Shown here: piece after piece, positions 6,335 to 43,994 of the stretch
Layout of the letters: each line of letters opens with the position of its first letter
Position numbering within the stretch: the first letter of the stretch is position 1
Origin: an uncultured cyanobacterium
GTDB taxonomy: Bacteria; Cyanobacteriota; Cyanobacteriia; Pseudanabaenales; Pseudanabaenaceae
NCBI GenBank assembly: GCA_963703315.1
Contig: OY969811.1
Span: 352,001-416,000 of the forward strand
Direction: 5' to 3'
Length of the DNA stretch: 64,000 bases
Notes under the pieces: generated by a model
Told to the model about the DNA's origin: nothing
The model's database searches: none
The model's input: only the letters and a program-made list of their open reading frames with translations
Position numbers and translations under genes: made by a program

Positions 6335-7243
6335 TCAATCTTGGTCAGGCTTCTGGCTTGATACATTTTTAGCGATATCGATAAATTGCTGCAAAATGAG
6401 TGAAGAATTCTCTTGTCGCCAAGCGATAGCTAATGGATTGGCGATCGCCTTCTCTCGAATAGGGCGATAAGTAACTCCTTCTCGTCGAAGATTCTGCACG
6501 CTGGATGGCAAAATACTGATACCCATTTCGCCTGCAACTAGCCCCAAAATCGTGACCATAAAGATCGCTTCTTGAGCCATCTTAGGAACAAATCCTGCTT
6601 GAGCACATAAAGCGTAAATTTGCTCTGATAAACCAAACACAACTGGACGGAGAGGCATAATAAACTCTTCCTCCGCTAAATCAGTCAGCGAAATTGTGGA
6701 TTGGATTGTTAGCGGATGGTGTTTGGGTAAAACAACCACCAAAGTCTCTTCTGAGAGAAGTGTCACTTCTAGATCATTAGCTTCAATCAGGGCAGGAGTT
6801 CGATAGGCAAAAATGATGTCGGTCTGGTGATCGTGCAATCCCTGAATTTGGGAACCACTACTGGCTTCTCGTAAAATCAGATTTGCTGATGGATAGTGTT
6901 GCCGAAAAGTCCGCAGAATATTGGGTAAGACACCATTAGCCATTGAGCTAGTAAAGCCTATTGTCAAATGATCTAATTCCCCTTGGTGAATGCGTTGTGT
7001 TTTGCGTATCGCCTGTTTTAAGTTTGCTAGAGTCGAACGCGCTTCTTCTAAAAATGCTTGTCCTGCCACCGTTAGCTGGATCGGGCGCTTGTCTCGATTG
7101 AATAGCTCAACGCCTAATTCCTTTTCTAGATCTCGAATTTGCTGACTCAATGGCGGCTGGGCGATCTGTAACCTTTCTGCGGCACGGCTAAAGTTTAGCT
7201 CATCGGCAACCGCAACGAAGTAACGAAGATGACGAAGTTCCAT
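6335..7243 (-). CDS. LysR family transcriptional regulator
   Basis: MELRHLRYFVAVA..LNFSRAAERLQIAQPPLSQQIRDLE HTH; divergent from aspartoacylase. Confidence 0.95.
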   Translation of the reverse strand: MELRHLRYFVAVADELNFSRAAERLQIAQPPLSQQIRDLEKELGVELFNRDKRPIQLTVAGQAFLEEARSTLANLKQAIRKTQRIHQGELDHLTIGFTSSMANGVLPNILRTFRQHYPSANLILREASSGSQIQGLHDHQTDIIFAYRTPALIEANDLEVTLLSEETLVVVLPKHHPLTIQSTISLTDLAEEEFIMPLRPVVFGLSEQIYALCAQAGFVPKMAQEAIFMVTILGLVAGEMGISILPSSVQNLRREGVTYRPIREKAIANPLAIAWRQENSSLILQQFIDIAKNVSSQKPDQD

Positions 7244-7346
7244 ATCAGTACTACTATACCTAAAATTAGATAATAGTATACTCAGTATAGGCTGTACATA
7301 TATTAATGGTTACCCTATAGTGAGCATGACGGGTACGCAGATTTGA

Positions 7347-8273
7347 ATGTCCTATGTTTCTAAGGAAGGTTTTGCTAGTATGGTAAGTCCAATTCGACGA
7401 GTTGTGATTGTTGGTGGAACTCATGGGAACGAATTGACAGGGATTTACTTGGTCAAGAAGTTTCAGCAATACCCACATTTGTTACATCGAGAAAGTCTTG
7501 AATGCATCACTTTATTAGCTAATCCCAAAGCGATCGCAGCCAATCGACGTTATATTGCTCGTGATTTGAATCGTTGTTTTGCCAATGAAGATTTGGCTAA
7601 TCCAGCGTTAAAAAGCTATGAAGACAGACGTGCTAAAAAAATTGCTGCCCAACTGGGACCAAAATCTCAGCCCCACGCTGACGTGATTATTGATCTTCAC
7701 AGCACAACTGCGAATATGGGCTTGACCGTTTTACCATCCAGTAAAAATCCATTGAATTTGCGATTAGCAGCCTATCTGAGCACACTAAATCCATTGGTTC
7801 GTGTTTGTTGTGGAGTGCAGTGCAATCAAGACTCTCCAGTGTTGCGATCTCTCTCCCCTCTGGGCTGCACTCTTGAAGTTGGTGCGATCGCCCAAGGTGT
7901 ACTCAATGCTGATTATTTGCAGCAAACAGAACAATTAGTTCATGCCATTTTGGATTATCTCGATGCCCTGAATCAGGGAGAAATTTTGTCTGTGCCATCG
8001 AGTTTAGATGTGTACCAGATGATTTCATCCGTGGACTATCCCAGAGATTTATCGGGTGAACTGCAAGCCATCATTCATCCTCAACTTCAGAATAAAGACT
8101 ATGAACCTTTATCCTATGGTGAACCGATGTTTATCAAATTTACAGGAGAATCAATTTCTTACCAAGGAGAAGACACTGTTTACCCCGTATTTATTAATGA
8201 GGCAGCGTATTACGAGCAAAAAATCGCAATGACGTTGACCTACAAACAACAGTTGAGTTTAGAAACAGTGTAG
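7347..8273 (+). CDS. Aspartoacylase (AstE/AspA family)
   Basis: GGTHGNE, RDLNRCF, DLHSTTANMG, INEAAYYE motifs. Confidence 0.92.
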   Translation: MSYVSKEGFASMVSPIRRVVIVGGTHGNELTGIYLVKKFQQYPHLLHRESLECITLLANPKAIAANRRYIARDLNRCFANEDLANPALKSYEDRRAKKIAAQLGPKSQPHADVIIDLHSTTANMGLTVLPSSKNPLNLRLAAYLSTLNPLVRVCCGVQCNQDSPVLRSLSPLGCTLEVGAIAQGVLNADYLQQTEQLVHAILDYLDALNQGEILSVPSSLDVYQMISSVDYPRDLSGELQAIIHPQLQNKDYEPLSYGEPMFIKFTGESISYQGEDTVYPVFINEAAYYEQKIAMTLTYKQQLSLETV

Positions 8274-21019: not shown

Positions 21020-21179
21020 ATATTTATTAAAAATTATAATTAGCCGTGAATTTATTTTTATTAATATATTTTGAGCCATATATATAAATTGCAAAAATAT
21101 TCTCATAAACTGGCTATAGTGATAAATATCTGATAAATTGCTTTTATAAATGTGTTTGGGAGGTAAAGCGATCGCGGTC

Positions 21180-22751
21180 ATGGATGTACTAACACAAGAA
21201 AAATCCCAAACGAGTGAATCTGAGAGTGGGAAATATACGGTGATTACTTTTGCTCCTGTGCAAGGCTTTATCGAGAAGTCCCGTAAGTTGCGCGATCTCT
21301 ATGGTGCATCGCAAATTCTCTCGTACTTAAGTTGGAAGATCGTTTGTGCGGCTAACAGTAAAAACTGTGAAGTGATTTCACCTGCGATCGCAATCGATAA
21401 TGCCTCTGAGATGGCTAATGTTGATATTGTGCAGGGTATGCCCAATCGAATTTTGATATTGGGTGATTTCTCGCATAACGATGCTCAGAAAGCTTTAACA
21501 GAAGGCTGGAAAGAAATTGTGACGGCTTGCCGTAGTTGGCTGAGAGATAATTTGCAAATTGATGATGAGGGCTGGTTTAACTCTTGGACAAGATGGCAAA
21601 TTCACGCTTGGGAAGTGTTTTGGGGTAGTGGTCAAAGTATTGAGTTTGCAATGCGCGATTTGGAAACTCGGAAGTTGCGGCGGGCTTGGACTGTTCCGAA
21701 TTGGAATGGTGAAAGTTCGAGTTTGTCGGGGCATGATGCGATCGCACATCCAAGTATGGATAATTTAGGAACGAATGAAGTAGAAATCAAAAAGTTTTAC
21801 AAGAGGCTTGCCGAAGTTCTCGATCCTTCTGGTGATGAGAACGATCGCGCTTATATCAATGAAAATGAGCGATTGAGTATTCCTGAATTAATCAAAAGAT
21901 TGGTTACTTATGAGGCGATCGCTAAAAAAATCCATCGCGATCTTTACGCGCCGACTTTTCGAGAAGTGCTTCGCAAAGATGACAAATCTGGTGCGACCTA
22001 TTGGACTGGTTGGTTTATGGGTGACGGCGATAAGGTTGGCGATCACCTCAAGAGGCTTACAGATAATGCTAGCGTCACTCAATTTAGCCAGTCTCTGAGA
22101 GCTTGGGGTAAGCAATTTCAAACAGATTTTGATAAAAAAGGTCGTGTAGTTTATGCGGGAGGAGATGATTTTCTCGGTGTGATGTATGGGGACAAACAGA
22201 CTCCTAAATTAGATAGCCGTGAAGTAATTGAATGGTTGCTGAATTTGCGTCATAGTTGGGAAAAAGGAAACCTTGGGATTACGCTCAGTGTGGGTTTTGT
22301 GTGGGCGGGGCATAGTGTACCGCAGCGTGATGTGTTGCAGCATTGCCGCGAGGCTGAGAAGTTAGCTAAGAATTTAGGGCGCGATCGCGTGACGATTCGG
22401 GTTCTGTTTAACAATGGGCAGTTTGTGCAGTGGACTACGCCTTGGAAATATTTGGAATGGTTAGCAGATTATCGCGATCGCAATGACAATACTGGCAAAG
22501 ATGCGAATTGGAGCCATGTATATACCGATCTGGCACAGCTCAAAGCTCGTCATGCGATTCCACCTGCTACTGCTGAAACAGCTAATGATGTGATCGCGCT
22601 TGAGTTGTTTGGGTTGTATTTCGGCAAAGATAAGCAGGAAACGCTCTCTCAACAACGTGGAAAAATTACAGGATCTGAAGATTCCAAATCAATGATTGAA
22701 TGGATTGACGGCATGATTAAAGTGGGGTGGCAGTTATGTTCAAATTCCTAA
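21180..22751 (+). CDS. cas10: Type III-B Cas10/Cmr2 lacking the HD nuclease domain
   Basis: Starts directly with ITFAPVQGFIEKSRKLRDLYGAS; Palm motifs MGDGDKVG and YAGGDD; only about 523 aa. Confidence 0.93.
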   Translation: MDVLTQEKSQTSESESGKYTVITFAPVQGFIEKSRKLRDLYGASQILSYLSWKIVCAANSKNCEVISPAIAIDNASEMANVDIVQGMPNRILILGDFSHNDAQKALTEGWKEIVTACRSWLRDNLQIDDEGWFNSWTRWQIHAWEVFWGSGQSIEFAMRDLETRKLRRAWTVPNWNGESSSLSGHDAIAHPSMDNLGTNEVEIKKFYKRLAEVLDPSGDENDRAYINENERLSIPELIKRLVTYEAIAKKIHRDLYAPTFREVLRKDDKSGATYWTGWFMGDGDKVGDHLKRLTDNASVTQFSQSLRAWGKQFQTDFDKKGRVVYAGGDDFLGVMYGDKQTPKLDSREVIEWLLNLRHSWEKGNLGITLSVGFVWAGHSVPQRDVLQHCREAEKLAKNLGRDRVTIRVLFNNGQFVQWTTPWKYLEWLADYRDRNDNTGKDANWSHVYTDLAQLKARHAIPPATAETANDVIALELFGLYFGKDKQETLSQQRGKITGSEDSKSMIEWIDGMIKVGWQLCSNS

Positions 22752-23803
22752 TTGTGATACGTCCTTTGGGATTGCTTTATGGCAGCGCTGGCGCATTTCT
22801 GTCTCCTGAAAACTTAGTTGGACGCTCTGGCGCAAAATTTCCACCTGATGCGGGAACGCTTTCGGGATTGATTTTGGCGACAAATCAAGAGCAGAAGTTT
22901 ACCGAGCATCAAGAGCTAAAAACTAATCTGGCTGTAGCTGGTGCTTTTTGGGCAGAGTCAGATCATCCTGAAAACTTTTTTGTGCCAATTCCTCGATCGC
23001 GCATTGTCGGCGAGAAGAATAAGGATTTTGATGAATGGGCGCTAATCAATCACAAATGGGAGCGTCAACATCCCGATCTCGATCCTGAATATCAATGGCA
23101 GAGTATCAACTCTTGGCACAAGCAAACCCCACAGCTAAAGCGTCCTGAAAAAGGCAAGTGGAATGATGTTGGTAAAACTCCTTGGGAATTTATGCCGATT
23201 TTGCATCCCTATCTCAAAGATGATGAGAAACACGTCCGCGATCGCGATGGATTGTTTTTAGAGAATGCTGTGCAGATGCGTGAAGATAGCTGTTTGGTGT
23301 ATCTCTCGACGCATAAATTGCCTGATGGTTGGTATCGCTTTGGTGGAGAAAATCACATTGTGGAAATCACTAGTCAAGCAATTACAGAGCATAGTTCGAT
23401 CTGCAAGTTACTGAAGCAGAAAATTGGGCGGAGTTTTGCGCTGATTACGCCTGCGGTATGGGGAAGCAATAATCTATCAACTCGCTATCCTAACGATGTG
23501 CGCTTTAGCAACAAGCGTCCTGAGATGCTGACCGATCGCCCTGAGCCTTGGCGTTATCGTGTGGGTAAGGGTGAGGCGCAAAACAAACGCGCCAGTAAGT
23601 TGAGCATTGGTCGCTATGCTGTGCCTGCGGGAACTGTCTATGTGGTCAAACATCCCCTCGATCTCACTTGGTGGGACTTCCCGCCTGAGTGGTTTGCGTC
23701 GGGTGAGGGGCTACCGTTGCGGCAGTTTGGTTGTGGGTTGTGCTTACCTGTGGAAATCAAAATCGAGCCTAAAGTTGAGCCTAAAGCTGACCAAAAAAAT
23801 TAA
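22736..23803 (+). CDS. cmr3: Type III-B Cmr3 (Cas5 group)
   Basis: LLYGSAG.FLSPENLVGRSG..FPP, RFGGENH, ALITPAVWG, YAVPAGTVY; position after cmr2. Confidence 0.88.
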   Translation: MFKFLIVIRPLGLLYGSAGAFLSPENLVGRSGAKFPPDAGTLSGLILATNQEQKFTEHQELKTNLAVAGAFWAESDHPENFFVPIPRSRIVGEKNKDFDEWALINHKWERQHPDLDPEYQWQSINSWHKQTPQLKRPEKGKWNDVGKTPWEFMPILHPYLKDDEKHVRDRDGLFLENAVQMREDSCLVYLSTHKLPDGWYRFGGENHIVEITSQAITEHSSICKLLKQKIGRSFALITPAVWGSNNLSTRYPNDVRFSNKRPEMLTDRPEPWRYRVGKGEAQNKRASKLSIGRYAVPAGTVYVVKHPLDLTWWDFPPEWFASGEGLPLRQFGCGLCLPVEIKIEPKVEPKADQKN

Positions 23804-23821
23804 ACAAAAAGGAGAGGATTA

Positions 23822-24652
23822 ATGTACAAAAAAGCCTATGGAATTATTGAAACCCTTGCGCCTTTGCATGTTGGAGCTGCCGCAGGTGAGGAGTCTGGTA
23901 ATCTCAATTTGATTTTTCGCGATCAATTTACGCAGACGGGGATTATCGCAGGGAGTTCGATTCGCGGACGCTTTCGGGCAGATATGCGCGAGACGGAAAA
24001 GGGTTTAGAGAATACATGGTACGGACATGAATCTGTGGAGGGTAGACCTGATGGTGGGACTACGGAAGCGATCGTCAAATTTGAATATGCTTCGCTGGTT
24101 TGGTTGCCTGTATTTTGTCCAGGACAGCCTGTCGTTTGGATTAGTTGCCCAAGATTGCTTAAGCGATACAAACTGATTACTGGTTGCGATGCGCCTATTC
24201 CCAAACCTTACACGGCGGCGAAAACTCTGCGGGGTCGTCAAATTAGCGATCGCGGTACTGCTAAACAAATCCTATTTTTCAACCTTGGATTTATGGAAAT
24301 CGAGCAGCAAATCGAAGCTGAAGCAATGCAGAAATGGATTCCTACTGGTGCAGATCTGGCGGTTGAGAGTTTAGTGGTGGTTGGCGATAACGATATTGCG
24401 ATGTTGCATGACATGGCTTTGTATCGCCAGAGTCGCATCAAGATGATGGACGACATGAAAAAGGTAGATGGAGGAGCATTTTTTAATGTGGAGGCTTTGC
24501 CAGAGGGAAGCGTTTTAATATTTCCGATCGCTTTGAAGCAATCGGGCTGGAAACCTTTTGTTAATGGTGATTCGCAGGATATGTATTTTGGTGGTTTGGA
24601 GTCGGTTGGCTTTGGTCGTTGTAATGTCACACTTGCAGGAGAGTATCAGTAA
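23822..24652 (+). CDS. cmr4: Type III-B Cmr4 (Cas7 group RAMP)
   Basis: LAPLHVGA, GSSIRGRFR, FNVEALPEG, Gly-rich FGGLESVGFG. Confidence 0.93.
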   Translation: MYKKAYGIIETLAPLHVGAAAGEESGNLNLIFRDQFTQTGIIAGSSIRGRFRADMRETEKGLENTWYGHESVEGRPDGGTTEAIVKFEYASLVWLPVFCPGQPVVWISCPRLLKRYKLITGCDAPIPKPYTAAKTLRGRQISDRGTAKQILFFNLGFMEIEQQIEAEAMQKWIPTGADLAVESLVVVGDNDIAMLHDMALYRQSRIKMMDDMKKVDGGAFFNVEALPEGSVLIFPIALKQSGWKPFVNGDSQDMYFGGLESVGFGRCNVTLAGEYQ

Positions 24653-25056
24653 TGGCTTGGAAAACCTATGATTTGGATCGCATTGCTCAGAAGTTAGTTT
24701 TAGATGCGAAAGAACGCGATAAAGATTCTTTGGGACAAGCGTTTAAGATGCGTGTAGCTGTAGCTTATGGCTTGGAGCGCTTCTGGGGTGAGCATTTGCG
24801 CTTGCAAGGTAAGAAAGCAGATGAGCATAAAGCTAAGTATTGGAAAGAGACTTGGGATCAGCTTGTAGCAGTAATGCTAAAAGCTGGGGTAAAAATCCCC
24901 AACGATCCTGTGCAATCAGACAATGAGAAAGCTGTAAGGTCTATGGCAGAGAAACTTTGGGAAATAGACATCCAAGATCAACGGGTGGCGATCGCTGTGC
25001 TAACGCAGCTTTGTGACTGTCTGGTTTGGTGGACTCAGCGCTATAAGAAAAAATAG
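24652..25056 (+). CDS. cmr5: Type III-B small subunit Cmr5 (Cas11)
   Basis: 134-aa helical protein overlapping the cmr4 stop; AYGLERFWGE and LTQLCDCLVWWTQRYK. Confidence 0.75.
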   Translation: MAWKTYDLDRIAQKLVLDAKERDKDSLGQAFKMRVAVAYGLERFWGEHLRLQGKKADEHKAKYWKETWDQLVAVMLKAGVKIPNDPVQSDNEKAVRSMAEKLWEIDIQDQRVAIAVLTQLCDCLVWWTQRYKKK

Positions 25057-25074
25057 TTTTTAGGGACTAAAAAG

Positions 25075-26784
25075 ATGTCAAATATTCCCGATGCTTATAG
25101 AAAAGTGCCGATGATGTTTCAGGCGCAAACGAATGGGCGCTGTCAATTGCAACGTCTCGATCCAGATCGTAAAAAGGATGGCGATTCGCAAGATGCTGAG
25201 ATCTGGTGTGAGGAGTGGACAAGTGAAACTTATCCTGTTGCGCCGATATTTGAGGAGCCAGTCAAAAAGCGAGAATATACGATTAGTTGGCGATTTGTGA
25301 CAAATTCGGGTCAGGATGATGGCGTGATTCGTCCTGTCATTGGTGCGTCTGGCTATCCCTTTTACCCCGGTTCGAGTATGAAGGGAGCTTTTCGTCAGGC
25401 TTGCAATCGGTTATTTAGCGATCGCCTTGGTAAATATTGCGGACAGGAGATTTCTAAGGGAGATTTCTCCCCAGGGATTTTGCGCTTTCATGGTGGTTAT
25501 CCTGTAGATAGCAGTTGGACTGATGGGTTAGTTGATCTCATTCATCCACAGCAAAAGTTACAGGTAATGAATAGTGAAAAAGAAGGAGCCAAAATCCAAA
25601 TTTCACTCTATCAACCCACAATTCAATTTGGGATTTCGGCTTCGGAGGAGCTTGATGAATCTGAGTGGGAGGAGATCTGGCAGATTTGGGAAGCGGCGCT
25701 GGGGCGTGGGATTGGTTGTCGGGTTTCCGCAGGTTATGGTCATCGCGATCAATTAAAGGGTGAGTTGTTGTATCCGCCGCATCTGTTGAAAGGGCAAGGA
25801 ATGGCATCTAAGCGCTTAGATGAATCTGGCGAGTTTCGTCCCAATATTTTTCGGGCGGCGATTCGTGGTCATGCGTTACGGATTTTTGGTGGTTTGACGG
25901 ATGCAGAGACAGCAAAGCGAGAAGTCGAGAGAATTTTTGGCGGTGTTTCAGGGCATGGTGTATGGGGCTTATTGATGATGAACTTTGTGACAACTAGCCT
26001 TGATGAGCAAATGTTTGGCAATGAACCTAGCTATCAAGTAGAAGGAGAACTAGGCTGGTTACTATCACAAGATCTTTCAGAAGAACGTAAAACTGCTTTA
26101 AAAAATCTAATCCTACATCTAAATCAATTTGCCATGATCTTTGGTGGTTTTGGTAAATCATGGCGCAGAGCCGATCATCGGTTATTTTATGAGAAATATT
26201 ATAGGCAGCATAATAAAAAATATCTGATCGGCTGTCATTGGGAATGGGAAGGTGAATTTCGCCGTGATGTTAAGGTTTATAACCTCAGTCATATTTCTGC
26301 TTTTTTAAATCAGTTGCAAAATGTAGCTAAAATCTGGCTAAAACTACAAGGCGTAAAGATTGGAACAAGCTATGCAGATGATTGGCGAGAATCATGGCAC
26401 GTTGACAATGTGCAGGTTTGGGGCAGGCGTGCAGATGATGATTTAGATTCTGAAGCTATTTATTGGTTACATGGAGATTATCAAGATGCAGATAAAAGGA
26501 TGCGTATTCCTGCATTATCTATTAAGCAATCATCTGTTACAGGAGGGCAAATTGGGCAACGACAAATACAGATCGGGCGACTGTGGCATCGAATGTATCC
26601 TTTAAAAAAGCAAGTTCGAGATCCTAATGATTCAACAAAATGGCTTGTAAAAGATACTAATCAATATATTGAACTATTGACAATTTTCCCTGATAAATCT
26701 GACAAATGCTTAGATTTTCTCGATTTCTTGGCTGATGATAGTCCGTTTGAACAGCTATGGGGAAAGCCTTGGGAAATAGAATAG
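25075..26784 (+). CDS. Cmr6-Cmr1 fusion RAMP protein (type III-B variant)
   Basis: Two RAMP modules: PGSSMKGAFR...GIGCRVSAGYG (Cmr6-like) and FRPNIFRAAIRG...FGGFGKSWRR (Cmr1-like). Confidence 0.8.
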   Translation: MSNIPDAYRKVPMMFQAQTNGRCQLQRLDPDRKKDGDSQDAEIWCEEWTSETYPVAPIFEEPVKKREYTISWRFVTNSGQDDGVIRPVIGASGYPFYPGSSMKGAFRQACNRLFSDRLGKYCGQEISKGDFSPGILRFHGGYPVDSSWTDGLVDLIHPQQKLQVMNSEKEGAKIQISLYQPTIQFGISASEELDESEWEEIWQIWEAALGRGIGCRVSAGYGHRDQLKGELLYPPHLLKGQGMASKRLDESGEFRPNIFRAAIRGHALRIFGGLTDAETAKREVERIFGGVSGHGVWGLLMMNFVTTSLDEQMFGNEPSYQVEGELGWLLSQDLSEERKTALKNLILHLNQFAMIFGGFGKSWRRADHRLFYEKYYRQHNKKYLIGCHWEWEGEFRRDVKVYNLSHISAFLNQLQNVAKIWLKLQGVKIGTSYADDWRESWHVDNVQVWGRRADDDLDSEAIYWLHGDYQDADKRMRIPALSIKQSSVTGGQIGQRQIQIGRLWHRMYPLKKQVRDPNDSTKWLVKDTNQYIELLTIFPDKSDKCLDFLDFLADDSPFEQLWGKPWEIE

Positions 26785-27499: not shown

Positions 27500-28894
27500 A
27501 TGTCTGTAGTTTGGATTGTGACGACGGGTAATAGTGATGTCAAGCTGACAGATGATACTGGCTCGACACATTTGCTAGATAAAAAAGGTGAGCAGTTATA
27601 TTACTGTGGATTTTCTGCATCAGACGATAGTGATGATAGTGATGTCACACTGTTTACTTTGCCTGCAAGGGTAATGGGAATTAGCTATGGTGATGCAATT
27701 GGAACACATTGGGATCGTTTGACTTTTCCTTTGTTGGATGGATTTTGTCAGGAATTTAAGACTGAGAAAAGGAATAAGCCCGATCGCATTATTGTTTTGC
27801 TGACCGATCAGGAGGCGATTTTTGATGATTACAGTCGAGGTGATGCTGCTTGTCCTTATTGGCAGGATACATATACGCTTCAGCCAATTTTGAAGCATTA
27901 TTTTTCGCAAGTGTTTGGTGAAAAATTTGCTAATGAAAAGATTGAATTTTCGGTTTTGAAGCCGCAACAGGGGGCGGATGGGTTAGATGATTGGGATGCG
28001 ACATTGACGCTAGTAAAGGCGGAGTTGGCGAGGTGGGAAGAAAATAAGTGGATTTCTAAGAGCGATCGCGTGATTGTTAGTCATCAGGCGGGGACTCCTG
28101 CAATTTCTTCGGCAGTACAGTTAACTTGTTTGATTCGCTTTGGTAAAAAGGTGGAATTTCTGGTTAGCAGTGAGTTAGATCCAGATAGGACTAAGTTTTT
28201 AAAGGGTTCGTCCTATTTTGAGACGTTGCAATTTAAGAAGTTAGAGGATTTGCTAGCAAGGGATGATTATGCTGGGGTTGCTAGTGTTGTGGACAGTCTG
28301 GGTTTAGAAGATTCTGTGCTGAAGGTGAAGTTGGATCATTTACTCGAACTGGCGAAGTTGTGGAATGCAGCTAAGTTTGATGAGTTTGCTAACAGGATGG
28401 AATTGGTGACCTCTAGTCGAGTTAGGGAATGGTGGTGGAAGGGCTATGAGATGGCTTATCTGGCTGTGGTGAGGATGAAAAATGGTGATCCAACTGAGGC
28501 GCTTTTTCATAGTGTGAGAGCGATCGAGGGGTTGATTTGTGAATGGGCGATTCATAAAGAAAGGCGATCGGATTTGTATGGAAAGAGTTTGTATGATTTG
28601 TTCAAATTAAGAAACCCTGAGTCTAATAGTCTGCCGATTAAGGTTGTTTGGTCAAAGTTAGCTTCTGTCAGAAATAAGCTATTCCATACTTTGCGAGGTA
28701 TTTCGGCTGAGGAGGTTTGGGATGCTTGGGATGAAAACTCAAAATCTGACTGGGAAAATAGAATGTTTACTTGTCTTAATTTTGTAACTAGGAATGATAG
28801 ATCTCAAGAGTTTAAATCTCTGAAAGATGCTAGTTTGATGTCACAGGTGCATAAGGATTTGGAGGAAGTGATTAAGGCGATCGCTTCTTATTAG
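27500..28894 (+). CDS. Putative CARF-HEPN (Csm6/Csx1-like) type III effector
   Basis: N-terminal Rossmann-like WIVTTGNSD, LLTDQ and SHQAGTPAIS; C-terminal EALFHSVRAIEG and RNKLFH (RxxxxH); last gene before the array. Confidence 0.7.
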   Translation: MSVVWIVTTGNSDVKLTDDTGSTHLLDKKGEQLYYCGFSASDDSDDSDVTLFTLPARVMGISYGDAIGTHWDRLTFPLLDGFCQEFKTEKRNKPDRIIVLLTDQEAIFDDYSRGDAACPYWQDTYTLQPILKHYFSQVFGEKFANEKIEFSVLKPQQGADGLDDWDATLTLVKAELARWEENKWISKSDRVIVSHQAGTPAISSAVQLTCLIRFGKKVEFLVSSELDPDRTKFLKGSSYFETLQFKKLEDLLARDDYAGVASVVDSLGLEDSVLKVKLDHLLELAKLWNAAKFDEFANRMELVTSSRVREWWWKGYEMAYLAVVRMKNGDPTEALFHSVRAIEGLICEWAIHKERRSDLYGKSLYDLFKLRNPESNSLPIKVVWSKLASVRNKLFHTLRGISAEEVWDAWDENSKSDWENRMFTCLNFVTRNDRSQEFKSLKDASLMSQVHKDLEEVIKAIASY

Positions 28895-28930
28895 CTGATG
28901 AGTTATTGTCAGTTTTGGCTATCAAAATTA

Positions 28931-31900
28931 GTTTCCTACTCTATAGGGGACGCGATCAATTGGAAACAATGGTTGGTAAGTAGACTGTGTGATAGTAGAC
29001 AATCTCCTATACGCTAGGAGATGCGATCAATTGGAAACGCAAAGGTAAAGGTTGCTAATGTTGCGGGTGCTGATCTCCTACTCGCTAGGGGACGCGATCA
29101 ATTGGAAACCCAACTTTAAACACTTGGACATTTTCCAATGTAGCGATTCTCCTACTCGCTAGGGGACGCGATCAATTGGAAACCAGATGACATCATCTGA
29201 ACCAAATCTTCATCAAAGAACTTATCTCCTACTCGCTGGGGGACGCGATCGATTGGAAACATAAAAGCAAGGGCAGCAGCAATCAAAGCAGGCATATTTG
29301 TTCTCCTACTCGCTAGGGGACGCGATCAATTGGAAACCACTGTTTAGGCTGCCTAGCATCACATACACCTCGTTTTCCCTACTCGTTAGGGGACGCGATC
29401 AATTGGAAACGTAAATTCTTCCAACGTTTGACCGAACTTGTCGTCAATCCCCTACTCGCTAGGGGATGCGATCGATTGGAAACCTAATCTCACGATGCTC
29501 TACCGCTTCAAATAAGCAGTTTTCCCCTACTCGCTAGGGGACGCGATCAATTGGAAACCCCTGCGATTGATGGATAGTCAGCGCGAAAGCATATCGCATC
29601 CCCTACTCGCTAGGGGACGCGATCAATTGAAAACTCAATAATCAAAGTCTTTTAGTGATGAGTGAGATTGTTCCCCTACTTGCTAGGGGACGCGATCGAT
29701 TGGAAACGACATGTAATCATGTCCTGCTTTATACTTTTTATGATCTCCTACTCGCTAGGGGACGCGATCGATTGGAAAAACGGCTATACATTGCTCTGCA
29801 TGGTTCATGATAGGAATCTCCTACTCGCTAGGGGGCGCGATCGATTGGAAACTACCATAATGGCTTGGCTCCGTATTTGTGTGTCATTTCCCCTACTCGC
29901 TAGGGGATGCGATCAATTGGAAATGCTCCTCACTTCTGATGTTCCCAGACGTAAAACCAATCTCCTACTCGCTAGGGGACGCGATCAATTGGAAACAGCC
30001 ACGCTAGGGAATCTGGTTTTGTTGTGCCTTTTGGTCTCTCCTACTCGCTAGGGGTCGCGATCAATTGGAAACCCGCCTATTACTCGACGAATAACATTTG
30101 TCGCAACAAAAAAGTTCCCTACACGCTAGGGAACGCGATCAATTGGAAACACGTAGCCCTGTATGATGTTTGTGATTACTGGGTCATTAATCCCCTACTC
30201 GCTAGGGGATGCGATCGATTGGAAACTGACAACGCTTAATCGCTTGGTATGTCTGCTCAAAACTATTCTCCTACTTGTAAGGGGACGTGATCAATTGGAA
30301 ACTGAAACCAAGTGAGAGTGATGCTTTATGATGGTTTGTCTCCTACTCGCTAGGGGATGCGATCGATTGGAAACTGATGAGCTACCCGATCTTGGCTGTA
30401 AAAATCACCCTTCTCCTACTCGCTAGGAGACGAGATCGATTGGAAATGTCAGGTACTTGCCCGAGGAAGTCACCTTACCCTTGTCTCCTACTCGCGAGGG
30501 GACGCGATCGATTGGAAATGTCCAACAGAGAAAAGTAAAGTAAAGTTCGGATACATCTCCTACTCGTTAGGGGACGCGATCGATTGGAAATTGAACTTCA
30601 ACCATGTCGCACTCAACCCAAGCGCAAACCGATTTGTCTCCTACTCGCTAGGGGACGCGATCGATTGGAAACATCTCACCGTGCTTGCGACACCATTCCG
30701 AGAGTTGATCCCCTACTCGCTAGGGGACGCGATCGATTGGAAACAACTGAGCTTTTAGAAATACAATGTCGTTGATCGATATTCTCCTACTCGCTAGGGG
30801 ATGCGATCGATTGGAAACTGAGGATTATATCTTTCTTCAGTATCAGTTTCTTCAATCTCCTACTCGCTAGGGGATGCGATCGATTGGAAACCGATCAACC
30901 GCGATCGCCTCCTGAGTCCGACGGGCTTCTCCTACTCGTTAGGGGACGCGATCGATTGGAAACACTTTGCTGTATAGGGAATAGGTGAGAAAGCTGTAAA
31001 TCCCCTACTCGCTAGGGGACGCGATCAATTGGAAACGCATACTTGTCTAGGATCGGTGGGATGTATTTCCAAGTCTCCTACTCGCTAGGGGACGCGATCG
31101 ATTGGAAACGCATGACGGCTTTACGATTCGATAAAGTCTTTTCGTTCTCCTACTCGCTAGGGGACGCGATCGATTGGAAACGTTTTTATAATGTCTGAAT
31201 GTCTATGAGTCATTTTTTATCCCCTACTCGCTAGGGGACGAGATCGATTGGAAACCCCGCAAAGTTAATCCACTGAAATCACTCAATTTTGTTTCCTACT
31301 CGTTAGGGGACGCGATCGATTGGAAACCCTTTGGTTGTGAAAACTGCATTTCGTGACGTGGTCTCCCCTACTCGCTAGGGGACGCGATCGATTGGAAACC
31401 GATCTAGCCATGATTGTTTGATCACAAACTCGCAAATCTCCTACACGCTAGGGGACGCGATCGATTGGAAACACCCATTGGAGCAGCGCTTTAAATGTGT
31501 CGAGATCTTTCTCCTACTCGCTAGGGGACGCGATCGATTGGAAACTGTTCAGCCTTGTAAGCCCAAGCAGTAAGCTTGTTTCTCCTACTTGCTAGGGGAC
31601 GTGATCAATTGGAAACTACTTAGTTTCAAGCGCCTTGCCTGTGCGGGTGATTTTTCTCCTACTCGCTAGGGGACGCGATCGATTGGAAACGGTGGATTTG
31701 AGTAACGTAATAATAGAATAGTTTCCAACTTAGTCTCCTACTCGCTAGGGGACGCGATCGATTGGAAACTTGATCTCGATAATACGGTCGATCCCGTCAA
31801 TAGAAGTCTCCTACTCGTTAGGGGACGCGATCGATTGGAAACCCCTCGGCATCAAGGGTACTGAATCCGTAGACATCACTCTCCTACTCGCTAGGGGACG

Positions 31901-33073
31901 CGATCGATTGGAAACTTTGCTTGAGTTGTAGCGGTCAAATAATCGGTATTATCCCCTACTCGCTAGGGGACGCGATCGATTGGAAACCCGTCTCTCCCAG
32001 CGCGAATGCAGTCATTGACTTCTGGTAATCCCCTACTCGCTAGGGGACGCGATCGATTGAAAACCATGATTTCACCTGTAGTTTTTTAATTTCTTTCTCT
32101 TCTCCTACTTGCTAGGGGACGCGATCAATTGGAAACTCCTGACGGGTATCGTTTTGAAGCTTCCACAACCATAATCTCCTACTCGCTAGGGGACGTGATC
32201 GATTGGAAACGGTAAATTGCGGTGTAAACCGATAGAGAGAAATGTCATCCCCTACTCGCTAGGGGACGCGATCGATTGAAAACCATGATTTCACCTGTAG
32301 TTTTTTAATTTCTTTCTCTTCTCCTACTTGCTAGGGGACGCGATCAATTGGAAACAATGTGTACAAAACCATGTTTTCACCATTACCTAATTCCCTACAC
32401 GCTAGGGGGTGCGATCAATTGGAAACACTAGAACGATTGGATCGGATGTGCCAATTATTAATCTCCTACTCGTTAGGGGACGCGATCGATTGGAAACATC
32501 CATGTCCATGCTTCTTGAGTCTGGAAATTATCCTCTCCTACTCGCTAGGGGATGCGATCGATTGGAAACTTCGCAATATCCTTAATGGGGTTCGTTGCCT
32601 CTGTAGTGGTCTCCTACTCGCTAGGGGACGCGATCGATTGAAAACCACTTCACTGGATAAAGTTGCGATCGCGTTGGTTATTTCTCCTACTCGCTAGGGG
32701 ATGCGATCGATTGGAAACTGCAACTTCATGACATCAGGATCGTATTGCTGATCTCCCCTACTCGCTAGGGGACGCGATCAATTGAAAACTGACAACGCTT
32801 AATCGCTTGGTATGTTTGCTCAAAACTATTCTCCTACTCGCTAGGGGACGCGATCGATTGGAAACATAGGAGTATCAACTACAGGAGTATCAACTACAGG
32901 AGTTCCCTACTCGTTAGGGGGCGCGATCGATTGGAAACATATCGGAAACACTCGTAAAAACCATGTATCCTTGCTCTCCTACTCGCTAGGGGACGCGATC
33001 GCTTGGAAACATCTCAAGCCATTGCTCAACTTCTTTATTTTCGTTAAAATACTCCTACTCGCTAGGCGATCGC
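28931..33073 (+). CRISPR. CRISPR array, about 56 full repeats plus 1 truncated, about 56 spacers of roughly 34-45 nt
   Basis: Consensus TCTCCTACTCGCTAGGGGACGCGATCGATTGGAAAC (36 nt); hairpin YCCTA-5nt-TAGGG; + orientation from the 3' GAAAC, G:U pairing valid only on +, and a downstream terminator; counted by eye. Confidence 0.98.
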
Positions 33074-33114
33074 TACTTATCAACCTTAAATTCAATCATA
33101 GATTAAAAACTAAA

Positions 33115-33531
33115 ATGCCAGCAAGAGATATCTATCACGATCAATGTAAAAACGCTCTAATTGCAGATGGTTGGACGATTACTCACGATCCCTTGTCGTT
33201 GAAAATTGGGAAGAAGGATATGTTTGTGGATATAGGTGCGGAGAAGTTTTTGGCGGCAGAAAAACATGGGCAGAAAGTGGCGATTGAGATCAAGAGTTTT
33301 GTGGGCAATTCAGAACTTGAAGACCTCAAAAATGCAATCGGTCAGTATGTTTTATATCAAAATGTTTTAGAATTGACTGAGCCAGATCGTAAGCTGTATC
33401 TGGGAGTACGTGAGCCTGTGTTTCATGAGTTGTTTGAAGAACCGATTGGTAAACTTTTGTTAGATAAAGGTATTGTCAATCTTCTTGTTTTTAATTCTGA
33501 ACGTGAGGTGGTAGTGAAGTGGATAAATTAG
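33115..33531 (+). CDS. xisH: XisH family protein
   Basis: MPARDIYH..KNALIADGWTITHDPL, IEIKSF, AIGQY; the longer ORF start lies inside the array. Confidence 0.92.
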   Translation: MPARDIYHDQCKNALIADGWTITHDPLSLKIGKKDMFVDIGAEKFLAAEKHGQKVAIEIKSFVGNSELEDLKNAIGQYVLYQNVLELTEPDRKLYLGVREPVFHELFEEPIGKLLLDKGIVNLLVFNSEREVVVKWIN

Positions 33532-33857
33532 TGGATTATCGGCAGATTATTTGTGATGTTTTGAGTCAATATTTGGATATTGATTATGCGAATGTTGATG
33601 CGAAGAATAAGGCTGCGTTTGATCGGGAGACCGATCAGTACATGATTGTTTCGGTCGGCTGGGATCGCGATAAGCGGCGGGTACATGGCTGCCTTGTCCA
33701 TGTGGAAATTATGGATGGGTTGGTGTGGGTGCAGAGGGATGGTACGGAATATGGTGTGACTAATGATTTGGTCGAAGCTGGTATTCCTAAATCAGATATT
33801 GTGTTAGGGTTTCATCAGCCTGACGTGAGGCAATATACAGGTTTTGCAGTGGCTTAA
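33519..33857 (+). CDS. xisI: XisI family protein
   Basis: WVQRDGTEYGV..DLVEAGIPKSDIVLGF, overlapping xisH. Confidence 0.92.
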   Translation: MDKLVDYRQIICDVLSQYLDIDYANVDAKNKAAFDRETDQYMIVSVGWDRDKRRVHGCLVHVEIMDGLVWVQRDGTEYGVTNDLVEAGIPKSDIVLGFHQPDVRQYTGFAVA

Positions 33858-33863
33858 GTATGT

Positions 33864-33954
33864 ATCCCCTGCTCACTAGGGAACGCGATCGCCTCAAAAA
33901 AAGCAGCCCGTCAAACAGGCTGCTTTTTTGTTTGCTTACTCACTCGAACAGGCG
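33864..33954 (+). repeat. Decayed CRISPR repeat ending in HIP1, plus terminator module (copy 1)
   Basis: ATCCCCTGCTCACTAGGGAACGCGATCGC then AAAAAAAGCAGCC...GGCTGCTTTTTT then TTACTCACTCGAACAGGCG. Confidence 0.8.
33896..33929 (+). terminator. Intrinsic terminator
   Basis: AAGCAGCC-cgtcaaaca-GGCTGCTT followed by a T tract. Confidence 0.75.
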
Positions 33955-34024
33955 GATGAGCTATCATTATGATCAGCAATTACGAATTTAGATCTTACTT
34001 CTTAATTTTGAGAGACAAGTAATT

Positions 34025-34684
34025 ATGGTTGCAATAGTTGAGAAAGAAAAGACTTTAAACCAGAGCATTATTCTGAATGGATGGAAAACAGCAACTTGGG
34101 AAGACTTTTTGGAAATATCTCAAGCAAAAAACAACGATAAGGCGAAATTTTACTATTTTCAAGGGAGTTACTACAGCGAAATGGGAGTTGGAGCAGATCA
34201 TGCTTTTGATAATGATTTGATTGGTTTTTTAGTAAACCTTTACTGCATGATGTGCAAAATTCCTATCAAAGGCTATACAAACTGTAGTTATCGCAAAATG
34301 GGAATACGCGAATGTCAGCCAGATATTTCTTATTATGTTGGCGATCGCACTCAGAACGCACCTCAAAGTAGCGCGATCGTCGATCTTGATGAGAGTTTAC
34401 CCCCTGATATTGTGATTGAGATTGCCGATACCTCCTTGGGCTACGATCTCGGCGCAAAGCGCTTGCTATACGAAGAAGTGCGCGTCGGTGAATATTGGGT
34501 AATCGATGTCCAGAATATGAAAATCACCGCGTTCCGTATTTTGCAGGGTTTAGGAAGCGAAAGGGTTACAGAATCCTCTGTATTAGGAGGATTACAATTG
34601 AGTTTATTAGAGGAAGCTTTGCAACGTAGCCGTGAAATAGATAATTCCCAAATTGGTTCTTGGTTTATGGATCAGTTAGGTTAG
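34025..34684 (+). CDS. Uma2 family endonuclease (DUF820)
   Basis: QPDISYY, PPDIVIEIA.TS..YDLG.KR.LY...EYWVID. Confidence 0.9.
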   Translation: MVAIVEKEKTLNQSIILNGWKTATWEDFLEISQAKNNDKAKFYYFQGSYYSEMGVGADHAFDNDLIGFLVNLYCMMCKIPIKGYTNCSYRKMGIRECQPDISYYVGDRTQNAPQSSAIVDLDESLPPDIVIEIADTSLGYDLGAKRLLYEEVRVGEYWVIDVQNMKITAFRILQGLGSERVTESSVLGGLQLSLLEEALQRSREIDNSQIGSWFMDQLG

Positions 34685-34694
34685 AGAGATGGAT

Positions 34695-34813
34695 TTTCCC
34701 TGATTGCTATTAATTTGTTGCGCCTAATTGCTAGGGAACGCGATCGCCTCATAAAAAAGCATTCCATCAAACAGGCTGCTTTTTTGTTGATTGATTACTC
34801 ACTCGAACAGGCG
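34695..34813 (+). repeat. Decayed CRISPR repeat ending in HIP1, plus terminator module (copy 2)
   Basis: TTCCCTGATTGCTA [24-nt insert ending ATTGCTA] GGGAACGCGATCGC-CTCATAAAAAAGC...CAAACAGGCTGCTTTTTTG...TTACTCACTCGAACAGGCG. Confidence 0.75.
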
Positions 34814-34875
34814 ATCGGCTGAAAAGTACCATCCAAAATCTCTGATAAAATATAGCTGATGATCGCGGTAGGCAA

Positions 34876-35019
34876 ACTGCAAATGATGACGGTCTGACTA
34901 CTTTGAAAGATTTAGATGTTTCTGATTATCTCGGTCTAACTGGCTTGGGACTAGCGATCGCCCAAGAATTTAGCTTCTGGGCTACGGCTGTTTATTATGA
35001 TGTATCAGGAGAGGATTGA
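34876..35019 (+). pseudogene. 3' remnant of a second Cmr5-like small-subunit gene
   Basis: Translates ANDDGLTTLKDLDVSDYLGLTGLGLAIAQEFSFWATAVYYDVSGED*; in-frame stop upstream and no start; family assignment from memory. Confidence 0.55.
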
Positions 35020-35021
35020 TT

Positions 35022-35264
35022 ATGAAATTAGAGCGAATTACTTGCAACCCTAAGATTATGAATGGACAACCCTGCATTCGTAATATGAGGCTAACTGTAC
35101 GGCGTGTTCTTGAAGTTTTGGCGATCTATCCCGATCGCTTAGAGTTAAGGCAGGAGTTTCCTGAGTTAGAAGATGAAGATATTCGGCAAGCTTTACTTTT
35201 TACTTCTAGCTATTTGGCTGACAAAATTATCGAGTTGCGTATAAGTGATGAAACTGCTGCTTGA
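35022..35264 (+). CDS. DUF433 protein (putative antitoxin)
   Basis: RITCNPKIMNGQPCIRNMRLTV...EFPELEDEDIRQAL. Confidence 0.9.
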   Translation: MKLERITCNPKIMNGQPCIRNMRLTVRRVLEVLAIYPDRLELRQEFPELEDEDIRQALLFTSSYLADKIIELRISDETAA

Positions 35265-35616
35265 TCAGGGTTTGCCGCGTTCTGCTGCAATGTTATTGCG
35301 AGAATGTGGGTATGAGTCGTTTCATGTGGCAGATTTAGGGTTATCGGCATCGGCAGATGAAGAGATTCTAAACTGGGCGAGTCAAGAAAATTTTACTGTG
35401 GTTACGCTTGATGCTGATTTTCATGCTCTATTAGCTTTGTCAGCAGCAGATAAACCTTCTGTGATTCGGATTCGGATTGAAGGTTTGAAGGCTATACCTC
35501 TGCTGAAAATACTACAAACTGTAATCAAAAATTGTGAGACAGAAATTTTGTCTGGTGTAGCAATTACTGTAGATTCCAATCGTATTCGCGTTCGCAATTT
35601 ACCATTGTTGCCATAG
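35248..35616 (+). CDS. DUF5615 PIN-like protein (putative toxin)
   Basis: MKLLLDQGLP, ADEEIL.WA, VVTLDADF; overlaps the DUF433 gene. Confidence 0.88.
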   Translation: MKLLLDQGLPRSAAMLLRECGYESFHVADLGLSASADEEILNWASQENFTVVTLDADFHALLALSAADKPSVIRIRIEGLKAIPLLKILQTVIKNCETEILSGVAITVDSNRIRVRNLPLLP

Positions 35617-35651: not shown

Positions 35652-36293
35652 ATGAGCGTTACTGTTCCGATCAAATCGATTGATCTACGACATGGTAGTG
35701 CGATCGCCATACATTCCCTGAGTTGGCGCGATTGTGAAGACATCCTGAATGAATTAGGTGAAGATCGCCATACTCGCATTGCATACTACCAAGGCACTTT
35801 AGAAATTATGTCTCCATTAGCAAGGCATGAGCGCCCCCATCGCCTCGCGGGTTATATTGTGACCACAATTTTAGACGCGCAAGGGAGAGATTGGGAAGAT
35901 TTTGGCTCAACTACCTTTTATCGAAAAGGAAGTGCTGGTGTGGAACCTGATACTTGTCTCTATGTGACTAATTCAGCTTTAGTGCGTGATTGTCAAGAGC
36001 GTATCGATGTCGATATTTATCCGCCACCTGACTTGGCGATTGAGTCGGATGTCACTTCTAAGACTTTGTTATCTGCTTACGAAGCGATCGCCGTGCCTGA
36101 AGTTTGGATTTATCGTAATGATAGCTTGAAGATATTTTTACTAACCGATGGACATTATCTAGAGTCAGAGAATAGTCTGCTTTTTCCAGATATACCAATC
36201 AAGACGCTGATTCCACAGCTTGTAAATCAAGCGATCGCGATCGGAACAAGCGCCATGTTAAGAGAGTTTCGCAAATCTCTAATAGGAGTATGA
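35652..36293 (+). CDS. Uma2 family endonuclease
   Basis: LEIMSP...HE, GVEPDTCLY, PPPDLAIESD, VPEVWIY. Confidence 0.9.
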   Translation: MSVTVPIKSIDLRHGSAIAIHSLSWRDCEDILNELGEDRHTRIAYYQGTLEIMSPLARHERPHRLAGYIVTTILDAQGRDWEDFGSTTFYRKGSAGVEPDTCLYVTNSALVRDCQERIDVDIYPPPDLAIESDVTSKTLLSAYEAIAVPEVWIYRNDSLKIFLLTDGHYLESENSLLFPDIPIKTLIPQLVNQAIAIGTSAMLREFRKSLIGV

Positions 36294-36296
36294 AAA

Positions 36297-36878
36297 ATGA
36301 CCACAGTGATTCAAGCGCCAGTGATAGAGACAGTTACAGCGCAGCAAATGACATTGGCGGAATTTTTAGCAAGCTCTGAGTCGGATCAGAATTATGAATT
36401 TATCGATGGTCAAGCGGTGAAAAAAATGTCTCCAAAGAGATTTCATGCTGCCCTTCAGGGTGTTTTGTATCGGTACTTGGGTGATTTGTTTGAGGGTAAA
36501 GGTTATGTTTATCCTGAATGGGGGATAGTGCTAACACGCAACGATCAAGATTGGTGTCCCGTGCCTGACTTGACCTATATTTCGATAGAACGATTGCCTA
36601 GTGATGTCGGTAATGAAATCTGTCCAGTACCGCCTGAGTTAGTAATTGAGATTATGTCAGAAGGACAGACTTTTAAGGAATTTGTGGCGAAGGCAGGTGA
36701 TTATTTGAAGGCTGGGATATTGCGAGTATGGGTTATCGATCCGATGAGAAGATCTTTGACAGTGTTCTATCCCGATCGCCCACCTGAAACTTATCAAGGC
36801 GATCGCCTATTAACCGATGAGTTATTCCCAGATTTGGCAGTGACATCAGAGCAGTTTTTTGTAAAAGCAGGAATTTAA
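36297..36878 (+). CDS. Uma2 family endonuclease
   Basis: YEFIDG, PVPDLTY, PPELVIEIMS, YLKAG..RVWVIDP. Confidence 0.9.
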   Translation: MTTVIQAPVIETVTAQQMTLAEFLASSESDQNYEFIDGQAVKKMSPKRFHAALQGVLYRYLGDLFEGKGYVYPEWGIVLTRNDQDWCPVPDLTYISIERLPSDVGNEICPVPPELVIEIMSEGQTFKEFVAKAGDYLKAGILRVWVIDPMRRSLTVFYPDRPPETYQGDRLLTDELFPDLAVTSEQFFVKAGI

Positions 36879-36897
36879 AAATTAGAGACAAGTAATT

Positions 36898-37172
36898 ATG
36901 GTTGCAATAGTTGAGAAAGAAAAAGTTTTAAGTCAAAGCTTTATTCCAAACGGATAGACAACAGCAACTTGGGAAGACTTTTTAGAAATATCTCAAACAA
37001 CAAGCAACGATAAAGCGAAGTTCTATTATTATCAAGGGCAATACTACAGCGAGAATTTTTTAAGTGCAGAACATGGAGCGAACCATTACCTAACAAGTTT
37101 TTTAGTAAACCTTTACTGCATGATGCTCAAAATTCCTCTTAGATGTCCAGCACATGAAAATCACCGCGTTCC
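36898..37172 (+). pseudogene. Degraded duplicate of the Uma2 gene at 34025
   Basis: Same upstream AGAGACAAGTAATTATGGTTGCAATAGTTGAGAAAG; TGG->TAG stop at codon 20; internal deletion joining to GATGTCCAG..ATGAAAATCACCGCGTTCC. Confidence 0.85.
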
Positions 37173-42842: not shown

Positions 42843-43994
42843 TTATTGAAAGATTTGTCCTCGTCCTAGCCACAGTTCTAATAGCAAAATTAGAAACCCT
42901 AGCATGGCGAAGCGTCCATTCCACACTTCGGCAGATTGGGTCATACCCCACTCCCAACGCTCTTGAGGATAGAGCTTCGTATTCTTTTGCGGTTGGATCG
43001 TTTCCGCAAAAGTAATGGGGCGATCGCTTACAGCTTTATTCACCACATCGGCTAGGGCTTGAATAAAGGTAGGGTCAGTATCGGGGGCAGGAACTCTGGC
43101 AAAGGTTTCAATACCAGCGTGTTCCGCGATCTCACGATATTCCATATCGATTTCTTCGAGGGTTTCGATATGCTCAGATACAAAGCTAATTGGCACTACG
43201 ACTAATTCTTTCACACCCTGTGCCGCTAGTTCTTCGATCGCCACATCGGTATAGGGCTGCAACCACTCAACAGGTCCCACACGACTTTGATAGGCGAGTT
43301 TGTAAGGATTAGGACGATTGAGCTTTTGCATGATTAACGCCGCACAAGCTTCGATTTCCTTCTGATAGGGATCGCCTGCTTCTTCGATATAGCTCACAGG
43401 CACACCATGAGCGCTGAAAAATATATAGGCTTCGCTAGGATTTTTAACTTGATCGAGCTTATTAGCGATTAGGTTTGCCATTGATTGCAAGTAGGCAGCA
43501 TTGTCATACCAAGAAGGGACAACGGTATATTTGATTTTTTGTAAGTCAGGATCGGTTTTCCAAATGCGATCTAGTAAGCGAAAGCTAGAACCTGTGGTAC
43601 TAATCGAAAACTGGGGATATAGAGGCAAAATTACCAATTCTTCAATTTTGTCCCGTTTGATTTGGGCGATCGCCTCTTCAGTGAAAGGATGCCAGTAGCG
43701 CATTCCTAAATAAACATGAGCATCATGACCATTTTGTTGAAGCTGCGATCGCAGAGCTTGTCCTTGAGCTTCAGTAATACGTCTGAGTGGTGAGCCACCA
43801 CCAATTTTTTTGTAATTTTCTTGAGATTTTTTGGCGCGAAGAGTTGAAATCAACCAAGCTAGGGGCGCTTGCAGCAATGGTGAGGGTAAGCGAATAATTT
43901 CTGGGTCAGAAAATAAGTTATACAAAAATGGGCGGACATCTTCTATTTTGTCGGGTCCACCGAGGTTGAGCAGTAAAACTCCTAATCGCCCCAT
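42843..43994 (-). CDS. hemH: Ferrochelatase with C-terminal CAB domain
   Basis: [49 protein letters not shown] motif. Confidence 0.97.

Follow-up and report, generated by a model that had tools for sequence, protein, structure and literature searches.

CRISPR repeats as likely swap points for small gene cassettes at the trailer end of a cyanobacterial type III-B array

In integrons, small accessory genes that often lack a promoter are strung together in variable order, and behind each of them, close to its stop codon, comes a repeated site. [quoted passage not shown] It lies in a stretch of 64,000 nucleotides (nt) from an uncultured member of the Pseudanabaenaceae (assembly GCA_963703315.1, contig OY969811.1, positions 352,001 to 416,000 of the forward strand), hereafter called the window, whose numbering is used throughout; the host genome is complete, with 4.57 Mb in one contig. 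In this locus and its relatives, genes lie between repeats in variable order, as units that precede a full or decayed repeat and are shared across species, with no integrase at the locus, and the repeats are likely to act as swap points for gene cassettes.

Two described arrays of Synechocystis come close to ours in repeat or operon type. Each repeat of the CRISPR1 array is, like ours, 1 nt off the octamer called highly iterated palindrome 1 (HIP1), but CRISPR1 is of type I-D and was the subject of a methylation study, with no gene cassettes in the passages covered of that report (PMC6604393). The type III-Bv CRISPR3 of Synechocystis 6803, according to the covered portions of two reports (PMC12464536, PMC6546367), shares with ours cmr genes without cas6, a large RAMP gene and a repeat with a 5′ hairpin and a single-stranded 3′ part, whereas our host lacks cas1-cas2 and a leader and its array runs on into gene cassettes. 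HIP1 occurs at 1.8 copies per kb in the host genome. As far as the covered text of Elhai 2015 (PMC4390886) goes, it cites evidence for site-specific recombination at HIP1 and proposes a methylation-directed repair that creates and keeps the octamer; excerpts of two further papers describe an effect of HIP1 on integration (10.1101/2024.09.10.611283, PMC13756078), the first of them reporting that it raises the efficiency.

A repeat-hairpin-repeat unit between the trailer genes

The array and the first part of its trailer comprise the following features.

28932..33010, + strand: heterogeneous CRISPR array; 56 full repeats of 36 nt, in which positions 21-28 form an octamer close to HIP1
33052..33073, + strand: truncated last repeat (33052-33065) fused to a perfect HIP1 (33066-33073), read from the sequence
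33115..33857, + strand: xisH-xisI cassette (xisH 33115-33531, xisI 33519-33857; Pfam)
33865..33954, + strand: Unit 1, with left decayed repeat 33865-33900 (HIP1 ends at 33892), hairpin 33897-33930 and right decayed repeat 33932-33954
34025..34684, + strand: Uma2 cassette U-a, a putative PD-(D/E)XK nuclease (Pfam)
34720..34826, + strand: Unit 2, with left decayed repeat 34720-34755 (HIP1 ends at 34747), hairpin 34753-34786 and right decayed repeat 34791-34826

An earlier note, made from the letters of this DNA, had reported this layout of broken last repeat, xisH-xisI, decayed repeats, terminators and Uma2 gene, and all of it is present in the sequence and in the Pfam matches. To score the orphan repeats independently of HIP1 we used repeat positions 1-20 alone, with HIP1 excluded, and ranked all 16,462 oriented HIP1 sites found in the genome. 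Ranks 2 and 3 went to the orphans that start at 33865 and 34720, behind only the array's own repeat at 32975; they hence stand well above background, as the note had supposed: both are true CRISPR repeats of this array. The truncated last repeat, which lacks 5 nt ahead of HIP1 and for that reason ranked only 14,756 in this ungapped test, was identified visually and from where it lies, one spacer past the last full repeat.

The two orphans, taken with the hairpin and tail behind them, are 90% identical over 83 nt, and alignment of unit copies revealed another decayed repeat, in register with the first, in the tail. In 21 of the 24 copies that could be measured, the period from left to right repeat is 67-72 nt, compared to 71-81 in the array, and the right decayed repeats score above nearly all HIP1 sites even with the octamer excluded (p 2e-4 to 1.3e-2). 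The unit is thus a repeat, a two-way terminator-like hairpin in the place of a spacer, and a repeat. Folding supports the hairpin (z -3.95); a promoter and terminator scan listed nothing exceeding shuffles, the hairpin included, and Rfam matched no family over 28800-35200. The unit is present in 20 of 47 other genomes of the genus, at one to three copies each. Its spacer is a hairpin complementary to itself, and the host genome has no further long match to it, which sets the unit apart from CreTA or crRNA-like mini-arrays, which have a target in the same genome. Two explanations were rejected: an assembly artefact, since the genome is one contig and the unit also occurs in 20 other genomes and 4 metagenome contigs, and a genome-wide mobile repeat, since the host genome has no third copy of the unit.

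HIP1 is the best-preserved part of the decayed repeats. Of the 29 left ones, 18 have a perfect octamer, as do 22 of the 29 right ones, compared to 3 of 917 array repeats. The note had counted three repeats broken at HIP1, each losing the tag that follows it. A perfect HIP1 is indeed present in all three, but the two orphans are copies of one conserved unit, which leaves two kinds of junction and not three independent breaks; moreover, tail repeats retain 7 of 8 tag bases in several relatives, so that there the tag decayed and was not cut off. The right decayed repeat of Unit 1 is broken off within its own HIP1.

In the host array itself, whose orientation we take to be the + strand, positions 21-28 are one or two bases off HIP1 in 55 of 56 repeats and perfect in one, the commonest repeat form makes up only 20%, and the repeat folds into a hairpin on its 5′ side with an open 3′ part. 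The most frequent changes are G to A at position 27, which would fit deamination at a methylated core, and C to T at 12 and 20. Spacers are duplicated within the array (30227-30266 equals 32790-32829, 32029-32136 equals 32248-32355, one of these pairs lying 35 units apart), which shows internal rearrangement. Named records carrying this repeat are almost all Pseudanabaena.

Cassettes in the trailers and arrays of relatives

The gene pool around the units comprises four Uma2 genes, xisH-xisI, DUF4440, YiaAB, a PIN pair and unnamed small genes. All 21 trailers compared, which come from different species and not from strains of one, have different gene strings, with seven gene pairs occurring in both orders, and most pool genes end at a repeat or a remnant of one in at least one genome. 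These genes had been likened in the note to giant spacers or cassettes, and the likeness holds: their order varies in every relative, the same genes precede full repeats or lie within arrays, and HIP1 is the exact end point of several swaps and deletions. In G048 and G005 a full tagged repeat comes after U-a, and in the host the terminator unit does; U-a is accompanied by its own repeat variant in either setting. Similarly, a gene for a 100-amino-acid (aa) protein, with close copies in only two of 71 family genomes, lies between full repeats in mid-array in one (G049) and abuts the unit in the other (G047).

The xisI stop lies 7 nt ahead of the next repeat, and 95% identical copies of xisH-xisI were found solely in the trailers of G051 and G058. 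In both, the cassette follows an intact unit and about 60 nt ending in HIP1, all of which is deleted in the host at its truncated repeat. G023 has the same 60 nt and HIP1 with the PIN pair in place of xisH-xisI, a swap exactly at the second HIP1 when compared with G058. In two genomes, G013 and G058, the array is collapsed in its entirety onto the left repeat of the unit, and in G051 a transposase-like gene is inserted into the xisH of the cassette (L071 oriented 6638-7621). U-a matches the candidate defence models PDC-S17 and PDC-S03.

Copies of xisH, xisI and U-a are 95% identical between genomes whose control core gene is 83% identical, and over 285 pairs pool genes average 89.2% compared to 84.7% for the control, a contrast that depends on this single gene (window 42843-43994, which we take to be hemH). 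Four ordinary spacers are also common to different species, each singly and without its neighbours. Tyrosine recombinase (PF00589) matches are absent near the locus, at 0.38 Mb, and occur in the genome only at 1.75 Mb and 4.37 Mb.

Genes flanked by this repeat family, whose survey the note had called for, also lie within the arrays of relatives. Among 23 genomes with at least two repeats read, inserts longer than 200 nt numbered 14 distinct ones of 244-3843 nt, and a fifteenth that is presumably an insertion sequence (IS)-like element, in 10 of the 23 genomes and one metagenome contig. Nine of the 14 lie between two full repeats, unlike the trailer genes of the window itself. Most of the nine are joined at repeat ends and not at HIP1, and three have HIP1 near one end. 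A two-gene insert of 933 nt in G023 is 85% identical over 916 nt to one in a 156-repeat array of G005, where the repeats are of a different family with no HIP1-like site; the shared insert begins at the repeat end in both arrays.

The longest open reading frame (ORF) is in the array sense in 11 of the 14 inserts (three assigned by eye; one-sided binomial about 0.03, calculated by hand). Several have leaders of 22-54 nt, two have stop codons 0-2 nt from the repeat, and several of the encoded proteins start with signal-peptide-like stretches, as judged by eye. Pfam named one of 12 insert proteins (DUF1993) and PHROGs matched none of the 12. For the inserts covered by a search for source DNA outside arrays, none was found except a 74% homologue, in the host genome, of one broken gene; the 933-nt insert had no match in plasmids, nor was there an exact match to the repeat in viral contigs. 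The largest insert (G051, L128:2855-6697), of 3.8 kb with ABC-transporter-like genes in antisense and HIP1 18 nt inside its start, lies between two full repeats and may be a real insertion or an assembly join.

Short leaders and stops this close to the repeat would also be expected if a Cas1 fused to reverse transcriptase (RT) wrote processed transcripts into arrays as promoterless ORFs, a route that would concern origin only and be compatible with later shuffling. RT-Cas1 fusions do occur in the genus (L179 and L180, in G041 and G044; Pfam), adjoining arrays of a different repeat family whose repeats resemble the second family of G005. The cas1 that adjoins the present array family encodes about 330 aa, too few to include an RT domain, three inserts are antisense, one is 3.8 kb, and selection for expression accounts for the same insert shape; we therefore regard capture from RNA as very unlikely.

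Family repeats and other elements also occur outside the window. A solitary repeat on the - strand (G000:C1:3917538-3917081), with promoter-like sequence upstream, leads into a gene for a 138-aa protein that heads a run of predicted secreted or lipoprotein genes and has a homologue at the array end in G006 (75% over 441 nt, repeat end included). A mini-array of two diverged repeats and one spacer, also on the - strand and with promoter-like sequence upstream (G000:C1:1050584-1050474), could be a regulatory crRNA-like element. An A/T-rich hairpin repeat of about 45 nt is found at dozens of sites across G000 and in the G006 trailer.

Setting of the locus and HIP1 at the joints

The genes on either side of the array and first cassettes are as follows.

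21150..26784, + strand: type III-B cmr operon with cas10/cmr2, cmr3, cmr4, a 134-aa gene at the cmr5 position and a 569-aa RAMP gene (ORFs, Pfam, NCBIfam)
27500..28894, + strand: CARF-HEPN (Csx1-like) gene (PADLOC), its stop 37 nt upstream of the first repeat
28877..28931, + strand: HIP1 at the end of the CARF gene, then a remnant of a Uma2 3′ end (26/32 identity past HIP1, 13/30 ahead of it)
35016..35616, + strand: DUF433 and DUF5615 (PIN-like) pair inside the leader of the next Uma2 gene (Pfam)
35652..36878, + strand: Uma2 cassette genes U-d and U-b, members of the shared trailer pool (Pfam, comparison with relatives)
36875..37172, + strand: second U-a copy, internally deleted (direct repeats D7, D11, D18; 80% over 254 nt)

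The operon is likely to be a III-Bv variant. It is a cmr module in a genome where searches for Cas1, Cas2 and one Cas6 family gave zero matches, and the 569-aa RAMP gene is compatible, by size only, with a Cmr1-Cmr6 fusion. No leader lies between the CARF gene and the array (window 28894-28931), an arrangement found in about ten relatives; the host has neither the cas1-cas2 nor the leader of an acquiring system, and the array, starting 37 nt after the CARF gene, would be transcribed from the cas operon. Past the HIP1 at the CARF gene end the sequence matches a Uma2 gene past its own HIP1, and G002 retains both genes intact; the segment is likely the scar of an old HIP1-to-HIP1 deletion, and cas1-cas2 and the leader are gone as well. 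In G002, G045, G051 and G014 cas1-cas2 adjoin this array family, and there the commonest repeat form accounts for 98-100% (50% in G051); leaderless arrays are mostly mixed, at 15-38% in seven genomes and 62-87% in three.

The note had proposed that the near-HIP1 site of the repeat is a recombination point that captures the cassettes. In such a mechanism, a host activity recombining HIP1 sites would join any HIP1-flanked gene into that site. In 43 unit copies there are 32 distinct left joins, 13 of which retain the repeat from its first 8 positions. Among the 19 left joins that are truncated, six begin within positions 19-23, at the edge of HIP1, for which a uniform null gives 8.8% (p=0.0045, or p=0.05 with a narrower range). 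In the junctions reused most, homology has the octamer as its precise start or end (107 of 443, counted pairwise and not independent). Together with the swap of xisH-xisI for the PIN pair, the scar at the CARF gene end and the recombination and integration at HIP1 treated in the portions covered of Elhai 2015 (PMC4390886) and of 10.1101/2024.09.10.611283, these observations speak for such a mechanism.

Counted as distinct sites, however, intergenic breakpoints are not enriched at HIP1 (7 of 110, compared to 4.2% expected; p=0.18), nor are they in a looser run that is noisy from fragmented alignments (13 of 234, compared to 5.7%). Some joins delete HIP1 itself (G043, G059, G015), and the same insert occurs in a repeat family free of HIP1. 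Full repeats on both sides of an insert, joined at the repeat ends, moreover imply duplication of the repeat and not a repeat split at its octamer. Homology may begin at HIP1 simply because HIP1 is the best-kept part of a decayed repeat. Capture specific to HIP1 thus finds no backing as the general mechanism and we judge it decidedly unlikely; HIP1 is likely a favoured, but not a required, joint.

Origin and movement of the cassettes, and comparison with known systems

The reading that we prefer, with moderate confidence, is that the trailer continues the array in decayed form, its genes having entered as oversize spacers through Cas1-Cas2 in relatives and then moved by host recombination as gene-plus-repeat units. 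First capture would be by rare uptake of oversize spacers in those relatives that still have cas1-cas2. Homologous or microhomology recombination between repeats would later copy, delete and swap units between strains, with HIP1 as a favoured joint in host recombination, and the donor DNA would probably arrive by natural transformation, ComEC being encoded in the host genome. Genes in the sense orientation may have been retained for their expression, which the array promoter would drive where they lie upstream of the first terminator. Judged from the order of genes and hairpins, in-array inserts could plausibly be expressed from the array transcript, and among the host trailer genes this holds for xisH-xisI only, because the terminator unit has been deleted ahead of these whereas a hairpin precedes the others.

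Several points weigh against this reading. Neither a recombination event nor the source of an in-array insert has been seen, which leaves capture by Cas1 unproven. The identity contrast between cassettes and core rests on one control gene, the genomes are related by descent, so that counts overstate independence, and the whole CRISPR island seems to move as a block. The ends of the DUF433-DUF5615 pair carry neither repeat nor HIP1, and many junctions are plain deletions at gene ends distant from repeats. In the covered part of Kupczok et al. (PMC4524480), on four other species, recombination is a minor force in arrays. Both gene orders can also result from tandem duplication combined with random loss, and the window holds a deleted U-a copy; this copy and the deleted gene remnants in which trailers are rich indicate that duplication and loss contribute.

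Some of these points lead to a passive explanation, by which mobile genes of the Uma2, Xis and toxin-antitoxin kinds gather in a defence island, repeats are left stranded among them by tandem duplication and by deletion, and the mutational process behind HIP1 genome-wide turns decayed repeats into perfect copies of the octamer. Pool genes can indeed sit together without repeats, as do xisI and three pool Uma2 genes within the cas operon of G014, and Uma2 genes are plentiful, 72 of the 75 matches in the host genome lying elsewhere and 3 at the locus. The many gene remnants in trailers, the frequency of HIP1, the repair process making and maintaining it that the covered text of Elhai 2015 (PMC4390886) sets out, and a general tendency of terminal repeats to mutate more, noted in the passages covered of PMC12839519, all fit. 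What a passive sink leaves unexplained are intact genes exactly between perfect mid-array repeats, stop codons abutting repeats, the sense bias and the presence of one insert in two repeat families, and we consider it unlikely.

Going beyond capture by Cas1-Cas2 and later shuffling, Pseudanabaena arrays might as a whole work as an integrase-free integron, in which whole genes written between repeats by Cas1-Cas2 are expressed by way of the array promoter and of repeat processing and, during natural transformation, are traded across species and even repeat families through recombination at repeats and HIP1, so that a selected pool of cassettes for defence and for secreted proteins builds up; we put this forward tentatively, as a possibility that we would not ourselves count on. 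CRISPR repeats would in any case serve as joints for whole-gene cassettes genus-wide and not as a one-off accident. The arrays offer a compact natural system in which to ask if gene-sized DNA is captured by Cas1-Cas2 in nature and if HIP1 directs recombination. The function of HIP1 has been obscure for three decades, and a repeat one base off HIP1 in the working array and matching it in decayed copies makes a one-base experiment possible in a genome with ComEC.

A literature search, with most subscription papers outside its coverage, returned no paper on repeat-bounded gene cassettes in cyanobacterial arrays. The nearest likeness is to the long spacers of Kupczok et al. 2015 (PMC4524480), stretches of at least 100 nt between repeats for which lateral spacer transfer by recombination was considered; those were, in the portions covered, few and mostly transposon-like, whereas here 14 of 15 inserts are not IS elements, most hold intact small ORFs, they recur across species and the trailer is shuffled. 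In Streptococcus pyogenes a CRISPR repeat serves as the integration site of a prophage and spacers can be moved or deleted, but that case, as the covered text presents it (10.1101/2020.10.09.333658), depends on a phage and its cycle, in contrast to units of 0.2-4 kb with no PHROGs match in 12 insert proteins and no integrase. The locus resembles integron cassette arrays in its small, often promoterless genes with a repeated site behind each, variable order, stops near the site and candidate defence cargo; it differs in that neither an integron integrase nor a tyrosine recombinase is present at the locus, that terminators interrupt the string and that its sites match the CRISPR repeat, whereas integron sites are attC. 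Given integron-like behaviour with no integrase, we group it with gene-bearing CRISPR arrays.

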